DNA of 32,000 nucleotides from positions 203,341 through 235,340 of the forward strand of contig CAYVBR010000015.1 in the NCBI GenBank assembly GCA_964449865.1, in the 5' to 3' direction. The notes below the pieces were generated by a model. The model saw nothing but the letters and a program-made list of their open reading frames with translations, searched no databases and was not told where the DNA came from. Made by a program: the position numbers and the translations under genes. The stretch comes from an uncultured Candidatus Nitrosotenuis sp. Lineage in GTDB: Archaea; Thermoproteota; Nitrososphaeria; Nitrososphaerales; Nitrosopumilaceae. The first letter of the stretch is position 1; the number at the start of each line of letters is the position of its first letter. This document shows, one piece after another, positions 20,017 through 26,615 of the stretch.

Positions 20017-20090
20017 GCCGCCCTAGCTCAGCGTGGTAGAGCGCCTGACTGTTAATCAGGGGGTCGTCAGTTCAAGTCTGACGGGCGGCG
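20017..20090 (+). tRNA. tRNA-Asn (anticodon GTT), no encoded CCA, no intron
   Basis: Hand-folded cloverleaf. Acceptor GCCGCCC/GGGCGGC, D arm GCTC..GAGC, anticodon stem CCTGA/TCAGG with loop CTGTTAA, T arm GTCAG TTCAAGT CTGAC, discriminator G. TATA-like GATTAAAT lies at 19983-19990. Confidence 0.92.
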
Positions 20091-20097
20091 CATAATC

Positions 20098-20119
20098 TTT
20101 CTAAACTCGAGTTTTGAAA
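20098..20119. repeat. variant copy of the 22-bp palindrome (TTTCTAAACTCGAGTTTTGAAA), followed by a T-rich tract; possible tRNA terminator hairpin
   Basis: 19/22 identical to the consensus. The two centre changes (T9>C, A14>G) are complementary and preserve the dyad. TTTGTTTTT follows at 20122-20130. Confidence 0.6.
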
Positions 20120-20178: not shown

Positions 20179-20200
20179 TTTCTAAATTCGAATTTAGAAA
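20179..20200. repeat. 22-bp perfect palindrome TTTCTAAATTCGAATTTAGAAA (copy 1)
   Basis: The sequence is its own reverse complement and is identical to the copy at 22074-22095. Confidence 0.9.
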
Positions 20201-20290
20201 TATAGATCGATGCAACCATTTGGTTTACTCTATTAGACCGTCTGGATCTAATATCTGATCGCACATTATGAATAATGCAGGAGGTTTACG

Positions 20291-20545
20291 ATGGCCAGAA
20301 TTAAAAGGGCCAACAGATATTGTGTTGACTGTGGGGCAAGACTGGTGTACTACCCACGCCTTTCAAACCCAAAAGCCCCAAACGAGCACCGAGTTTTGGT
20401 GTATGGGTGCCCTGACTGTACAGTTGACTTTGAAAAACCAAAGCTTTTCTCAATTCGACGAAACCAGGTTGACGATCCGCTGGAAACAGTAGAGATTGAG
20501 ATAGTCGAAGCTAGGAAACTCCTGGAAAAAACACCCGTGGCATAG
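20291..20545 (+). CDS. small zinc-ribbon protein (84 aa), function unknown
   Basis: CVDC...CPDC pairs. A strong SD AGGAGGT sits 8 nt upstream of the ATG. Preferred over the overlapping alternative-frame ORF 20268-20492. Confidence 0.65.
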   Translation: MARIKRANRYCVDCGARLVYYPRLSNPKAPNEHRVLVYGCPDCTVDFEKPKLFSIRRNQVDDPLETVEIEIVEARKLLEKTPVA

Positions 20546-21147: not shown

Positions 21148-21594
21148 TCTGGCCATTTTCTTCACATTGCAAAAAGTTTGGCGTGGTTTTATGGAAAAAA
21201 ACCCTACCCTTTTGCCGCAAACTAGGGCAAAAGAATTGAGAATTTGCGCATAATCTCAGAATCCCTGATTATCCGATTTGTGTCAAGAACTGTAAAAATC
21301 TTGGATTTTTCTGATGATTTTTCACCCTAAATTCGGTTTTTGCTGGGGTTTAGCTTTTGTTCGGGGGACAAATAGTTTTGGCACCTTTACCTGGGTAATG
21401 GGGATGTTTTGGCACTTGCCTGCATTAGTTACGAACAAGTGTTAAACCCCCCTGAAAAACGGCTGATCCTGAAAAAATCATCGTTCTCACAATTGGGGGT
21501 TGACTATACGGGGGTTTAGCTTTTACGAACAAATTGCAATATTTGGCAAAAACTCAAAATAATTCAAATTAAAGAAGGTCTTGATTCGTAACAC

Positions 21595-22062: not shown

Positions 22063-22073
22063 AAAACCATATG

Positions 22074-22095
22074 TTTCTAAATTCGAATTTAGAAA
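22074..22095. repeat. 22-bp perfect palindrome TTTCTAAATTCGAATTTAGAAA (copy 2)
   Basis: Perfect dyad, 11 nt after the Nudix stop and 17 nt upstream of TTAATTAA at 22113. Confidence 0.9.
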
Positions 22096-22112
22096 TATTC
22101 TGAAAAGATCAG

Positions 22113-22120
22113 TTAATTAA
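22113..22120 (+). promoter_or_regulatory. candidate TATA box TTAATTAA of small secreted peptide gene A
   Basis: Exactly 29 nt upstream of ATG 22142, the same geometry as paralogue B. Confidence 0.55.
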
Positions 22121-22141
22121 CTGGGAATTAAAAAATTGAGC

Positions 22142-22369
22142 ATGGCTGGTAAACTACTCGGACTAGTTGCAATAACTGTCCTCTTGTCTACAATATTGGT
22201 CATGGCACTATCATCTGAACAATATGCTGAAGCAAAGACTTCAAAAATGTCTCCAAAACACAAGTTCAGCAAATGGGCTCATAACAAAGTATGTGGCGAC
22301 CAACTCTGTGAAGGAGACTCCTACTACAAAACACCACTTAAGATAGGAAAGAGCACACCGCACCGATAA
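22142..22369 (+). CDS. small secreted Cys-containing peptide, paralogue A (75 aa precursor, about 44-aa basic mature part)
   Basis: Signal peptide MAGKLLGLVAITVLLSTILVMALSSEQYAEA with an AxA site. The mature region shares TSKM..HK[FY]S.W..N.VCGD.LC.G..Y.K with the next gene. The ORF opens at TTG 22136. Confidence 0.7.
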   Translation: MAGKLLGLVAITVLLSTILVMALSSEQYAEAKTSKMSPKHKFSKWAHNKVCGDQLCEGDSYYKTPLKIGKSTPHR

Positions 22370-22431
22370 GAAACAACAATTTTTTCATTTTTTGCACTTC
22401 TTTTCATGCTCTAGTGCAGCAAAATCTAATA

Positions 22432-22453
22432 TTTCAAAATTCGAATTTAGAAA
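22432..22453. repeat. 22-bp palindrome, copy 3 (TTTCAAAATTCGAATTTAGAAA, 21/22)
   Basis: One mismatch (T5>A). Lies 18 nt upstream of TTAATTAA at 22472. Confidence 0.85.
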
Positions 22454-22471
22454 TAGCAAAAAATGGTTACT

Positions 22472-22479
22472 TTAATTAA
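22472..22479 (+). promoter_or_regulatory. candidate TATA box TTAATTAA of small secreted peptide gene B
   Basis: Exactly 29 nt upstream of ATG 22501. Confidence 0.55.
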
Positions 22480-22500
22480 TCCAACGGGCGTATGCATAGC

Positions 22501-22776
22501 ATGTTGAGACTAGTTGCACTTGTAATGATAAGCGTACTGCTGTCGACTGCTATACTTGGAGCAGTAAGTTCAGGTCAGTTTGCAGACGCAGCAAAGGCAT
22601 CTAACACGTCAAAAATGCTCAGGCACAAGTACTCACACTGGGTCGGAAACCAGGTATGTGGCGATGAACTGTGTCCTGGTAATCCCTACTTCAAATGGAA
22701 CATGAAATACAGAACTCATGTATCCCCATACGACAGTTATGAGCATCAAGACTTGCTCAAAGTAAAGCACCAGTAA
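22501..22776 (+). CDS. small secreted Cys-containing peptide, paralogue B (91 aa precursor)
   Basis: Signal peptide MLRLVALVMISVLLSTAILGAVSSGQFADA and a shared VCGDELC core with paralogue A. The ORF opens at ATG 22492; ATG 22501 fits the promoter geometry. Confidence 0.7.
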   Translation: MLRLVALVMISVLLSTAILGAVSSGQFADAAKASNTSKMLRHKYSHWVGNQVCGDELCPGNPYFKWNMKYRTHVSPYDSYEHQDLLKVKHQ

Positions 22777-23113
22777 TTCTGACAAAATACGCTAAAACAC
22801 ACCTGTTTCATGAGATGACATCTTACACAATAATTTAGAAACTAGTGCGAACTGCCTAAAATTTTAAAGATTTGCTTTTTCTCAAATATCGCGATACCGC
22901 ATAATATGAGCAGCCTAAAATCAGGCTTATTTGTTCTGAAAATAGTTTTTCGGAAATTTGTCAGATTCCGCGCCAAAGTAAAATCATACCGACGCCTGTT
23001 AGTAGGAGAATCCCTGTACGGCCGATGTAATTTGCAGATTCGCTCAAATCACTAGGGTGCCGACTGGTGATTATTTATTAATTTTCTAACTGCTCAAACT
23101 CTGAGGTGGAAAT

Positions 23114-23663: not shown

Positions 23664-24059
23664 TTGTTAAATCTAATTCATCATGACTCTATTAAGAAAT
23701 GCACGCCTGCTTACTGCGTGGAAGGACTAGAGGTAAAACTGCCAATTCCAAAAAGGTTTACAGATGCGCAGTTACGCATGCTTGAAGACTATTTTAGAGA
23801 GATGCCGATTGAGGAAATCCTAACCGGATTAAAGTTTGCAAAAAACAGGTGGTCTGCAAAGGACGCCGGAGTTCTAAAGGTCGGGAGAAAAAGCATTATA
23901 CAAAAAGAAGTCCATTCCGTTACGAACGAGCAGGCGCAGTGGAGGCTGAAGAACTGGAAAATGATGATCTCAAATTATAGGCGACGCGGATACAGCTACC
24001 CGACAATATCTAGAATAAAGAAAATCCTTGTTGAAAAAAGTAAAAAGAAGTCTAAATGA
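23664..24059 (+). CDS. hypothetical basic protein (113-131 aa), function unknown
   Basis: The ORF opens at TTG 23664, only 4 nt from the divergent gene. GTG 23718 would give the 59-bp divergent spacing around the AT-rich TCTAATTCAT seen at other gene pairs. The 3' end overlaps cdvB by 8 nt. Confidence 0.5.
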   Translation: MLNLIHHDSIKKCTPAYCVEGLEVKLPIPKRFTDAQLRMLEDYFREMPIEEILTGLKFAKNRWSAKDAGVLKVGRKSIIQKEVHSVTNEQAQWRLKNWKMMISNYRRRGYSYPTISRIKKILVEKSKKKSK

Positions 24060-24796: not shown

Positions 24797-25882
24797 TTAT
24801 CCGAAGGTAAACGTGTAGATTTCAAATCCCGGGCTGTCCACTTGAATCTCTATTGTGTGCCGCCCAGAGTCTTTTGTCTTGGCAATGTTGTAGAGTCTTG
24901 ACTCTGAAGTGTGAACCTTGCCGTCCTTGACATCTGAACCGGAATCTTCTTCTGATATTGGCTTTCCGTCAAGCAGTATGGTAAGCTCCGACTCTCCAGA
25001 CGCTACAATGTTTACGTCTCTTGCAAAGTATGGCAGCTTGATTGCCCCTGAATCTGACACCAGTCTCATGCGGTCTGAAATGTTTTTCCAAACTCCGTCC
25101 AAGTAAAAGTGATTGCTTTCTAATTTATCTGGAATGACATATGTGACGTCGTTATTTGGATTAAATCCTTCTGAATTCCCAAGCAGATTTCTTCCGTGAG
25201 CAAAGTCATACCCGAAATATAATTCCGGGGTCCCGGCGCCATTTTCAAATTCTTCAATTTCTACAAGCGGCTGTACCGTATCCATTTTCAGTCCAAGTCT
25301 TGATGCTCGCTCATTTAGCAGGTCTTGGATTACTTTTTCAGTTTCTGCATACTCTCCCTCACCTATGTGATCATATCTGATGTACCCTTCGTCATCTGCA
25401 ATGTATTTTCTTGGCCAGTAGTTGTTTGAGAACGCACTCCAGATCTCTTTGTCATTATCAAGCACTACTGGATACGTGATTCCGAATTTCTCAGTTGCCT
25501 GCTTTACATTGTTGATGTCTTTTTCAAATTCAAATTCTGGTGAATGTATTCCAACTATGACTAGTCCCTTGTCTGCGTACTTGTCGTTCCAAGCTACGAT
25601 GTATGGGATTGTCCTCTGGCAGTTTATGCAGCTGTATGTCCAAATGTCATAGAGCACCACTTTGCCTTTGATCTGATCTTTGAGCTGCTCAGCATCCGTG
25701 TTGATGTATCCTGCAATCCCTTGCAGTTCTGGCGCTTTTTTGAACTGGCTTTTATCAATCGATAGCGTATCAGTGCCGGTGTTGTTTGGGGCTTCTAGCG
25801 AGGTAAAGTAGGCACTCAGCCCTCCTATTGCTCCTGCAATCACTATTCCCATGATTATTGCTGATTTAATTTCTGATCTCAT
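24797..25882 (-). CDS. membrane-anchored thioredoxin-like (TlpA/redoxin, DipZ-type) thiol:disulfide oxidoreductase with a C-terminal beta domain
   Basis: N-terminal TM helix and a redoxin fold with active site WTYSCINCQ (CxxC). VGIHSPEFEFEKD and YPVVLDND are also present. About 150 extra C-terminal residues resemble DipZ. Confidence 0.8.
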   Translation of the reverse strand: MRSEIKSAIIMGIVIAGAIGGLSAYFTSLEAPNNTGTDTLSIDKSQFKKAPELQGIAGYINTDAEQLKDQIKGKVVLYDIWTYSCINCQRTIPYIVAWNDKYADKGLVIVGIHSPEFEFEKDINNVKQATEKFGITYPVVLDNDKEIWSAFSNNYWPRKYIADDEGYIRYDHIGEGEYAETEKVIQDLLNERASRLGLKMDTVQPLVEIEEFENGAGTPELYFGYDFAHGRNLLGNSEGFNPNNDVTYVIPDKLESNHFYLDGVWKNISDRMRLVSDSGAIKLPYFARDVNIVASGESELTILLDGKPISEEDSGSDVKDGKVHTSESRLYNIAKTKDSGRHTIEIQVDSPGFEIYTFTFG

Positions 25883-25886
25883 TTTC

Positions 25887-26615
25887 TTACCCTAACAACA
25901 AGTCATTCAAGAACGGGAAACTTGCAATTCTGGCAAGCTGGTTTGTAAGCACCAAAATGCCCAGCATGATTATCAAGCTGCCCATGATTATGGAGTAATA
26001 CTTCAAGTGCTTGCTTAGCGCCCGGATCAGTCTTGTGAACCTTGAGAAGAACACTCCCATTAGAATAAACGGAATTCCAAGTCCTAGGGAATATGCAAGC
26101 AACAACGTAAATGCCTGCCCTGGCGTGGTGGCAGCCAAGGTCAAGACGCTTCCAAGTATTGGGCCAATGCACGGCGTCCAGCACGTGGCAAATGCGAGCC
26201 CGAATACAAACGATAGCGGATAGCTGGCCTTGCCGCCTTTTGGCAAAAACTTCTTTTCAAAATTCAGCTTGTTTATCTTGATTGATAATAGCATGAATGT
26301 TCCAAACCCAATTATTATAATTCCGCCAACTTGGTTTAGTCCTGATATTAGACCCGATACCACACTTGATAGTACGCTGTTTAGTACAACGCCAAAAATA
26401 GAAAACACCACTGAAAACCCGAGGACAAAGAATATTGTGTTTAACAAAACGTTTAGCCGATTTGCGACCGTGATCACGCCGTTGTTTTTTTGAAGATCCG
26501 TGATCGTTGTTCCGGAAATATATGCTAAAAATGCAGGTATCACCGGCAGTATGCACGGTGCAAGAAATGAACCAAGGCCTGACACTGCTGCTATTGCGAT
26601 GGTTATCTCCGACAT
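25887..26615 (-). CDS. ccdA: cytochrome c biogenesis / thiol:disulfide electron transporter CcdA (DsbD family)
   Basis: Six-TM protein with the two conserved Cys motifs, APCILPVIPAFLAYISG and WTPCIGPILGSVL. Ends 4 nt upstream of the thioredoxin-like gene. Confidence 0.88.
   Translation of the reverse strand: MSEITIAIAAVSGLGSFLAPCILPVIPAFLAYISGTTITDLQKNNGVITVANRLNVLLNTIFFVLGFSVVFSIFGVVLNSVLSSVVSGLISGLNQVGGIIIIGFGTFMLLSIKINKLNFEKKFLPKGGKASYPLSFVFGLAFATCWTPCIGPILGSVLTLAATTPGQAFTLLLAYSLGLGIPFILMGVFFSRFTRLIRALSKHLKYYSIIMGSLIIMLGILVLTNQLARIASFPFLNDLLLG

Follow-up and report, generated by a model that had tools for sequence, protein, structure and literature searches.

Ammonia-oxidising archaea drive much of global nitrification, and to our knowledge hardly anything is known of how their genes are controlled or of their cell envelope. 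Several described systems offer points of comparison for the locus presented here. Leaderless archaeal mRNAs need a TATA box about 27 nt ahead of the first codon, and archaeal activators recruit TFB and TBP from a position just upstream of the TFB-recognition element (BRE). Res site I and the hix and gix sites are laid out as 13-2-13 around a central CG. In Xer/dif systems, chromosome dimers are resolved by XerCD in bacteria and by XerA in Thermococcales and Sulfolobus (PMC2958812). Here we describe a palindromic DNA element and two small adjacent genes, A and B, each of which follows one copy of it, in a window of 32,000 nt (the whole stretch of DNA that was analysed) from a contig of a Candidatus Nitrosotenuis genome of 1.69 Mb, labelled G000, whose nearest named relative is Ca. 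N. chungbukensis MY2. We assign a probability of about 0.5 to the reading that A and B are leaderless genes for exported mini-proteins made of little besides a shared N-terminal Cys-loop box, and that they are transcribed, together with a neighbouring zinc-ribbon gene, under a dimeric protein that occupies the palindrome.

Both units have the same layout, in which the palindrome is followed by a spacer of 17–18 nt, by the sequence TTAATTAA and by an ATG 29 nt further on. The 22-mer palindrome TTTCTAAATTCGAATTTAGAAA is exact at positions 22074–22095 (copy 3, upstream of gene A, with no strand assigned; 28-mer extent 22071–22098) and carries one mismatch at 22432–22453 (copy 4, upstream of gene B, likewise without strand), where shuffles of the window give an expectation of 0.00 matches. 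We read TTAATTAA as the TATA box of each gene; it lies on the + strand at 22113–22120, 17 nt past copy 3, and at 22472–22479, 18 nt past copy 4. The ATGs at 22142 and 22501 each stand 29 nt past the start of this box, a distance that suggests a leaderless transcript start for both genes, and the two units are separated by 358 nt from start to start. Gene A (22142–22369, + strand) is predicted to encode a pre-protein of 75 amino acids (aa) with a basic mature part of 44 aa that contains VCGDQLC, and gene B (22501–22776, + strand) a pre-protein of 91 aa with a mature part of 61 aa that contains VCGDELC and ends in a conserved tail, SPYD.Y.HQ.LLK. An in-frame ATG at 22492, upstream of the gene B start, is not conserved among relatives. 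The tandem palindrome-spacer-TTAATTAA-ATG architecture reported in the first-pass annotation, a model's reading of the letters of this DNA, was therefore recovered at these coordinates.

The geometry of the two promoters is conserved well beyond this genome. Among relatives, the gap between palindrome and TATA box is 17 nt in 13 of 13 genomes for the A promoter and 18–19 nt in 12 of 12 B promoters, the distance from TATA box to ATG is 28–30 nt across the A and B promoters compared, and the spacer sequences diverge. Synonymous sites of A and B are near saturation (synonymous substitutions per site, dS, of about 1.4–1.8), yet the spacing between palindrome and TATA box is strictly kept in 13 species. 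Gaps that stay fixed despite differing spacers and near-saturated synonymous sites tie the A and B promoters to the palindrome and suggest that the element is coupled to the regulation of both genes.

The two genes encode proteins of similar design. Protein A opens with MAGK, followed by 19–21 hydrophobic residues and AEA, and protein B with MLR, a hydrophobic stretch and ADA; the hydrophobic N-termini of both span 19–21 residues and reach a 19-residue Kyte-Doolittle maximum of 2.6–2.7. Neither A and B nor a third paralogue, C, show any deviation from the motif A[DE]A, and the features of a Sec-type signal (basic n-region, hydrophobic h-region, small residues at −3/−1) are present, from which cleavage of a signal peptide can be predicted. 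The mature parts are short and basic (pI 9.8 for A and 9.2 for B), contain His and Met, and hold exactly two Cys each, both inside VCGDxLC, which may be joined in a disulfide. No match to A, B or C was found in Pfam, NCBIfam or the PDB. The first-pass annotation had called real small-protein genes with a Sec-type N-terminus, an AxA site, one C-x4-C pair and a cationic mature part, belonging to a family that it did not recognise, and on each of these points our analysis agrees. It had also proposed homology searches with the mature peptides, and the tandem pair turned out to be conserved in the genus. A first search found the A-B pair in eight of nine genus genomes, and a profile of the mature part matched all 23 Nitrosotenuis genomes searched, strongly in 21 and weakly in G126 and G412. 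Gene B has 15 homologues with 56–100% identity, all named only "hypothetical protein", including one in Ca. Nitrosotenuis sp. DW1. Most relatives carry paralogue C on the opposite strand just after B, with its own TATA box and no palindrome; it is missing from this genome and its closest relatives. The median pairwise ratio of nonsynonymous to synonymous substitution rates (dN/dS) is 0.19 for A, 0.18 for B and 0.17 for C, which indicates that purifying selection acts on all three and that none of them is a remnant. A and B are real, selected genes that are old within the genus.

Outside the genus, the same profile matches the first 30–45 post-signal residues of far larger open reading frames, of up to 544 aa. 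The common pattern consists of a hydrophobic N-terminus, A-[DE]-A, x-K-[AS]-x-G, K-[YF]-[GS] and [VI]-C-G-D-x-L-C-[ST], and defines a Lys-rich box of about 30 residues with an invariant [VI]-C-G-D-x-L-C, whose two Cys lie 19–30 residues past AxA. Behind the box are found a metallo-beta-lactamase fold, a three-domain multicopper oxidase, DUF1264, DUF7482 and Kazal domains, as well as Met-rich and Cys-rich stretches. Across Nitrosopumilaceae, it stands at the head of a few larger exported proteins per genome, and this genome encodes three further box-bearing proteins besides A and B. At E <= 0.001, a search of limited sensitivity matched 104 of 223 Nitrosopumilaceae genomes and 0 of 177 genomes of other families of the class. 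Nothing similar was found in Pfam, NCBIfam or PDB sequences, and a literature search for VCGDxLC strings found no paper. Since the box also heads larger exported proteins, the three small proteins A, B and C are box-only forms peculiar to Nitrosotenuis, and the motif is not private to small secreted peptides. Each would consist of a Sec-type hydrophobic N-terminus, an A-D/E-A site, the Lys-rich box of about 30 residues and a short tail, and A and B would be paralogous, leaderless genes for small proteins that are either exported or membrane-tethered, with C as a third paralogue in most relatives. The box probably serves in tethering, in maturation, or in redox or metal handling beside the membrane. 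One of the larger proteins (227 aa; L146, G282:C15:57900–59300) has a Met-rich middle and a very Cys-rich tail with repeated C.C/CGDG motifs, and looks like an exported metal-binding protein.

The wider family bears on two other explanations of A and B. The box sits at the N-terminus of 128–544-aa proteins outside the genus, so that A and B could be imagined as pseudogene remnants, the N-terminal stumps of longer box-bearing genes, an outcome that the first-pass annotation had named as one that would speak against its proposal. The dN/dS values of 0.17–0.19, the conserved lengths and tails, including that of B, and promoters conserved across the genus make this explanation very improbable. Somewhat less remote, although still improbable in our view, is the proposal that A and B are free secreted peptides, acting in signalling, as antimicrobials or in metal binding, under a cis-element of their own. 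Short, cationic mature parts that contain His, Met and two Cys would suit such a role, as would the metal-related appearance of several larger box proteins (multicopper oxidase, Met-rich, Cys-rich) and the lack of a match to any known family. The cis-element, however, is not their own, as described below, and the proteins of the viral contigs showed no link to A and B. Among the neighbouring genes, Pfam and NCBIfam named no exporter or processing gene, immunity genes not having been specifically sought. The conserved part is common to ordinary exported enzymes, which favours a general envelope role over a specific signal or toxin.

The conserved element itself extends over 28 bp, aTaTTTCTAAAtTCGAaTTTaGAAAtAT, with a 13-2-13 architecture, ATATTTCTAAATT-CG-AATTTAGAAATAT. 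This genome holds exactly four copies, all inside the window and within 2.4 kb, where the first-pass annotation had described two, and a control pattern gave 0. Copies 1 and 2 follow a tRNA-Asn gene and precede the zinc-ribbon gene. The tRNA gene (GTT anticodon; 20017–20091, + strand; ARAGORN, Rfam 67.9 bits) is the left landmark of the cluster, in the same layout in other genera. Copy 1 (20098–20119, without strand) has three mismatches and the centre AACTCGAGTT, and is kept 7 nt after the tRNA in relatives; copy 2 (20179–20200, without strand) is exact, and the roughly 90 nt after it are non-coding and highly conserved. The zinc-ribbon gene (20291–20545, + strand) encodes 84 aa with a CxxC...CxxC pattern and is a core gene of Nitrosopumilaceae, present in 142 of 151 and in 144 of 145 genomes of this family and in 0 of 105 genomes of other families of the class. 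Its product has 46 invariant columns; no family or solved relative was found for it, and its predicted structure has a predicted local distance difference test (pLDDT) score of 55. The stretch between copy 2 and the zinc-ribbon ATG (20201–20290) is almost invariant across genera, reads ...ATTGATCG.TTGCAAC...TTAGAC...GATCTAATA..GATCGC..., and ends in GGAGG 6 nt before the ATG. It has no Rfam match, Rfam giving no known RNA in the region besides the tRNA, and could be a promoter plus a structured 5′ leader.

The four-copy layout is repeated in eight other genomes of the genus, and the element reaches much further. It occurs in 137 of 151 Nitrosopumilaceae genomes, in 1–6 and mostly 1–4 copies (the control pattern in 0 genomes), and where positions were listed, almost every copy is found no more than a few kb from the tRNA-Asn/zinc-ribbon locus. 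Among 80 named loci, which include Nitrosopumilus, Nitrosarchaeum and Nitrosopelagicus, the zinc-ribbon gene has a copy no more than 3 kb away in 74. In Nitrososphaeraceae, it is found in 33 of 41 genomes (the control pattern in two). Where genomes are GC-rich, the site is kept as an AT-rich island. It is also present once each in 50 viral contigs (IMG/VR, L080–L129), most of them of 4.1–4.8 kb, with one of 2.8 kb and one of 28 kb, where it occupies the middle of the space between two divergent genes, with about 31 nt to either start codon. The viral genes that flank it encode small membrane-type proteins. A and B show no similarity to the open reading frames of these 50 contigs, and a viral origin of the two genes was rejected on this ground; a viral 75-aa zinc-ribbon open reading frame, considered as a homologue of the host zinc-ribbon gene, proved unrelated. 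No paper on the palindrome was found in a literature search. Four copies against 0 expected and the wide spread of the element show that it is under strong selection. The "dedicated cis-element" of the peptide genes that had been proposed is thus a site that spans two families of ammonia oxidisers and small viral contigs; the palindrome is an ancient shared docking site, not a switch made for A and B.

A decayed third unit had also been suspected downstream of gene B, on the strength of an isolated half-site AATTTAGAAA at 22832–22841 (+ strand). The genome contains 18 isolated half-sites in all; the one at 22832 is conserved neither in G136 nor in G322 and probably lies outside the system. The 337-bp gap after B (22777–23113) contains no relic of a peptide gene and has no similarity to paralogue C at the protein or DNA level, and the third unit was rejected.

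The pattern of substitutions in the 28-mer indicates how the site is read. Positions 12/17 are doubly changed in 17 cases where about 16 are expected, and positions 8/21 in 8 where about 15 are expected. The absence of covariation between symmetric positions points to half-sites that are read independently by a protein dimer, and a hairpin or cruciform was rejected for the same reason; an earlier suggestion of a compensatory change at the centre is contradicted, there being no excess of double changes. The palindrome also sits at promoters in a second family. In Nitrososphaeraceae, the palindrome lies about 40–50 nt before the start of a core gene for a protein of 115–131 aa, and at the one locus read closely (L236; gene at 1139–1462, − strand) it stands 6 nt before the box TTTAAATG, the TATA box of this gene, the gene-start coordinates being similar in most of the others. 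The gaps to the nearest TATA-like box are about 6 nt for this core gene, 17–19 nt for A and B and roughly 29 nt for the zinc-ribbon gene, and differ by about one helical turn, a comparison that involves few promoters, with TATA boxes assigned by eye.

From this geometry a mechanism can be proposed. Each TTAATTAA promoter lies 17–19 bp behind copy 3 or copy 4, and a dimer on the palindrome would end about 7–9 bp from the BRE. Placed just upstream of BRE and TATA box, such a dimer would most likely set the transcription of A and B, and the zinc-ribbon gene, which follows copies 1 and 2, would be under the same control. Our literature search found no Nitrosotenuis transcriptome paper.

Two proteins come into question as binders. 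We infer that the best candidate is the 115–131-aa core protein already mentioned, which is encoded beside cdvB (23664–24059, + strand, in the window), matches no Pfam family, and is single-copy in 75 of 81 Nitrosopumilaceae and 35 of 41 Nitrososphaeraceae genomes. Its tail (GYSYPTISRIKK) looks like a helix-turn-helix by eye. The zinc-ribbon protein is a further candidate regulator or binder. The reading in which it is the sole binder is weakened because the palindrome occurs in Nitrososphaeraceae, where the zinc-ribbon profile finds no match.

Several observations weigh against control of A and B through the palindrome, or against parts of the picture drawn above. The hydrophobic segment, at 2.6–2.7 over 19 residues, is long enough for an uncleaved anchor, and AlphaFold gives protein B no confident fold (pLDDT 55). 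The Nitrosotenuis genome G126 keeps four palindromes though no A, B or C gene was found in it, which implies that the site has a role of its own, and other genera have one copy between the 3′ ends of convergent genes, with no promoter to control. In Nitrososphaeraceae, the palindrome is linked to a core serine recombinase, and in G066 (L031, C8:212500–225500) gene A and its promoter are inverted exactly between two palindrome copies, B being absent; both of these facts point to recombination.

The alternative to which such facts lead is that the palindrome is a bystander for A and B, a chromosome-maintenance or recombination site on the terminus side, and that the two genes are transcribed from their own TATA boxes alone. 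The site could be where a small serine recombinase makes its crossover, or it could mark the chromosome for segregation, and A and B would adjoin it either because intergenic DNA is where such a site has to be or because recombination at the sites duplicated or shuffled the unit of site and gene. Its 13-2-13 architecture around a central CG is what a site of this kind would have, and most of the Nitrososphaeraceae searched encode such an enzyme nearby: a single-copy core small serine recombinase of 198 aa with Resolvase and HTH_7 domains, present in 37 of 41 genomes and lying within about 5 kb of the palindrome, usually within 3.5 kb and often at less than 0.5 kb. The inversion in G066, the sites kept in G126 without the genes, the copy between convergent genes in other genera and the chromosomal position described below can all be counted on the same side. 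Against it, no PF00239 match was found in G000, and 0 of 81 Nitrosopumilaceae genomes reach the cut-off for the serine recombinase, a distribution opposite to that of the zinc-ribbon protein, which Nitrosopumilaceae have and the other families lack. Tyrosine recombinases are patchy: the only one of G000 occurs in 23 of 81 genomes of the family, one closed genome with palindromes (G048) has none, and no core XerA was found in Nitrosopumilaceae. The strict TATA spacing in 13 species despite a dS of about 1.4–1.8 also speaks against a bystander, as do the gaps stepped by about one helical turn, with the limits given above. On balance we regard this alternative as the main rival, less likely than control of A and B through the palindrome.

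Two observations on the recombinases themselves may be added. The serine recombinase was seen at L237:1841–2434 and in 36 other Nitrososphaeraceae genomes with 67–100% identity. The tyrosine recombinase of G000 (C2:154756–156033; L079:1051–2331) has 426 aa and a C-terminal CxxC...CxxC tail, is multi-copy in some genomes and broken in others, and is probably a mobile-element integrase.

The chromosomal position of the locus is similar in both families. Measured in genome lengths, its distance from cdc6 is 0.44–0.45 in the four closed Nitrosopumilaceae genomes examined and 0.40–0.49 in four closed genomes of Nitrososphaeraceae (sizes rounded). In G000, genes converge on the locus, and the MK disparity has its peak on contig C15 at 226,262, shortly past B, and its minimum on contig C5 beside cdc6; GC skew was uninformative on C15, where only the MK disparity is extreme at the locus. 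Convergent genes, the MK-disparity peak and the distance from cdc6 together place the cluster on the terminus side. On C5, a region at 61,260–61,730 upstream of cdc6 holds an AT-rich stretch and inverted repeats resembling origin recognition boxes (ORB), GAGTGGAAATAAAGG, at 61408 (+) and 61551 (−), with the MK-disparity minimum at 61,456, and is likely oriC. It might still be asked whether the palindromes are themselves the origin recognition boxes of a replication origin, being few, clustered and conserved; moreover, in the one small viral contig with listed open reading frames, none was recognisable as a replication or recombination protein, no family search having been run. With cdc6 and the ORB-like repeats on another contig, the locus nearly opposite cdc6 in eight closed genomes, and genes converging on it instead of diverging, we rejected an origin at the palindrome locus, an explanation whose chances we regard as negligible.

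A broader proposal would join position, recombinase and promoters, and we put it forward tentatively, as speculation with rather low odds. The palindromes would mark the replication-terminus side in ammonia-oxidising archaea without a core XerA, the latter point applying to Nitrosopumilaceae as found above. In Nitrososphaeraceae, the sites would be used by the core small serine recombinase for the resolution of chromosome dimers; in Nitrosopumilaceae, the recombinase would be gone and the sites held by another core protein, either the cdvB neighbour or the zinc-ribbon candidate. Through this protein, terminus DNA would be linked to the cell cycle or to division, and the A and B promoters, which would be in phase with the sites, would be switched together with replication termination or division.

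Other features of the region were noted as context. A thioredoxin-like protein (24797–25882) and a CcdA/DsbD_TM protein (25887–26615), both assigned by Pfam, are encoded on the − strand at 24797–26615. G126 retains this pair without A, B or C, yet has a weak box match in a larger protein; a relation between the pair and the peptides, raised as a possibility in the first-pass annotation, gains no support here and is not contradicted either. In the corresponding region of this 1.2-Mb reduced Nitrosotenuis genome (L078, G126:C7:18000–30000), no open reading frame of at least 50 aa lies behind copies 3 and 4. In the window, a 447-bp stretch at 21148–21594, between a gene for a 179-aa membrane protein and a Nudix gene, contains no convincing open reading frame.

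What this analysis adds is a Cys-loop box common to several exported proteins, a promoter geometry that stays fixed, a site linked in soil lineages to a core serine recombinase, and the position of this site opposite cdc6 in eight closed genomes. The 28-mer is short, extremely conserved and set in fixed geometry to strong promoters, and it offers a handle on the protein that binds it. The Cys-loop box is common to exported enzymes, including a multicopper oxidase, and to three box-only mini-proteins, and may define a step of sorting, tethering or redox chemistry between membrane and S-layer. The site, the serine recombinase and the position opposite cdc6 bear on how these archaea finish and separate their chromosomes.

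Set beside known systems, the locus resembles several of them in part. At the protein level, A and B share with Sec signal peptides the charged start, the hydrophobic core and the small residues at −3/−1 of an AxA site, and with lipobox-like post-signal sorting boxes a conserved Cys-bearing motif that is common to unrelated exported proteins. In the present box, however, the Cys pair lies 19–30 residues after AxA and not at the cleavage site, and the box is absent from Pfam, NCBIfam and the PDB and was found only in Nitrosopumilaceae. As a regulatory site, the palindrome is comparable to those of dimeric archaeal regulators, such as Ptr2 or the Thermococcales TGM bound by Tgr/TrmB, in being a dyad at a fixed short distance upstream of BRE and TATA box, in serving several promoters per genome, and in having half-sites that vary independently. 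With 28 bp it is far longer than the usual operators, and its conservation, which extends over two families and into viral contigs, is far stronger; its copies all lie in one chromosomal spot, some of them without a promoter. The likeness to dif consists in a 28-bp site readable as 11-6-11 and in its place in the part of the chromosome opposite the origin. The position, at 0.40–0.49 genome lengths from cdc6, does fit Xer/dif, but we rejected that assignment because there are three to four copies per genome and no conserved, core tyrosine recombinase. With res site I (gamma-delta/Tn3), hix (Hin) and gix (Gin), the palindrome has in common a length of about 26–30 bp, inverted arms of 12–13 bp and a 2-bp centre, as well as a core gene with Resolvase and HTH_7 domains near the site in Nitrososphaeraceae; the single inversion seen, in G066, may be a further likeness, both its ends lying at the sites. 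It differs from them in that this genome and all Nitrosopumilaceae searched lack a serine recombinase and no accessory sites were recognised, and, since its CG centre and its arms are perfectly symmetric, in being a site without direction.

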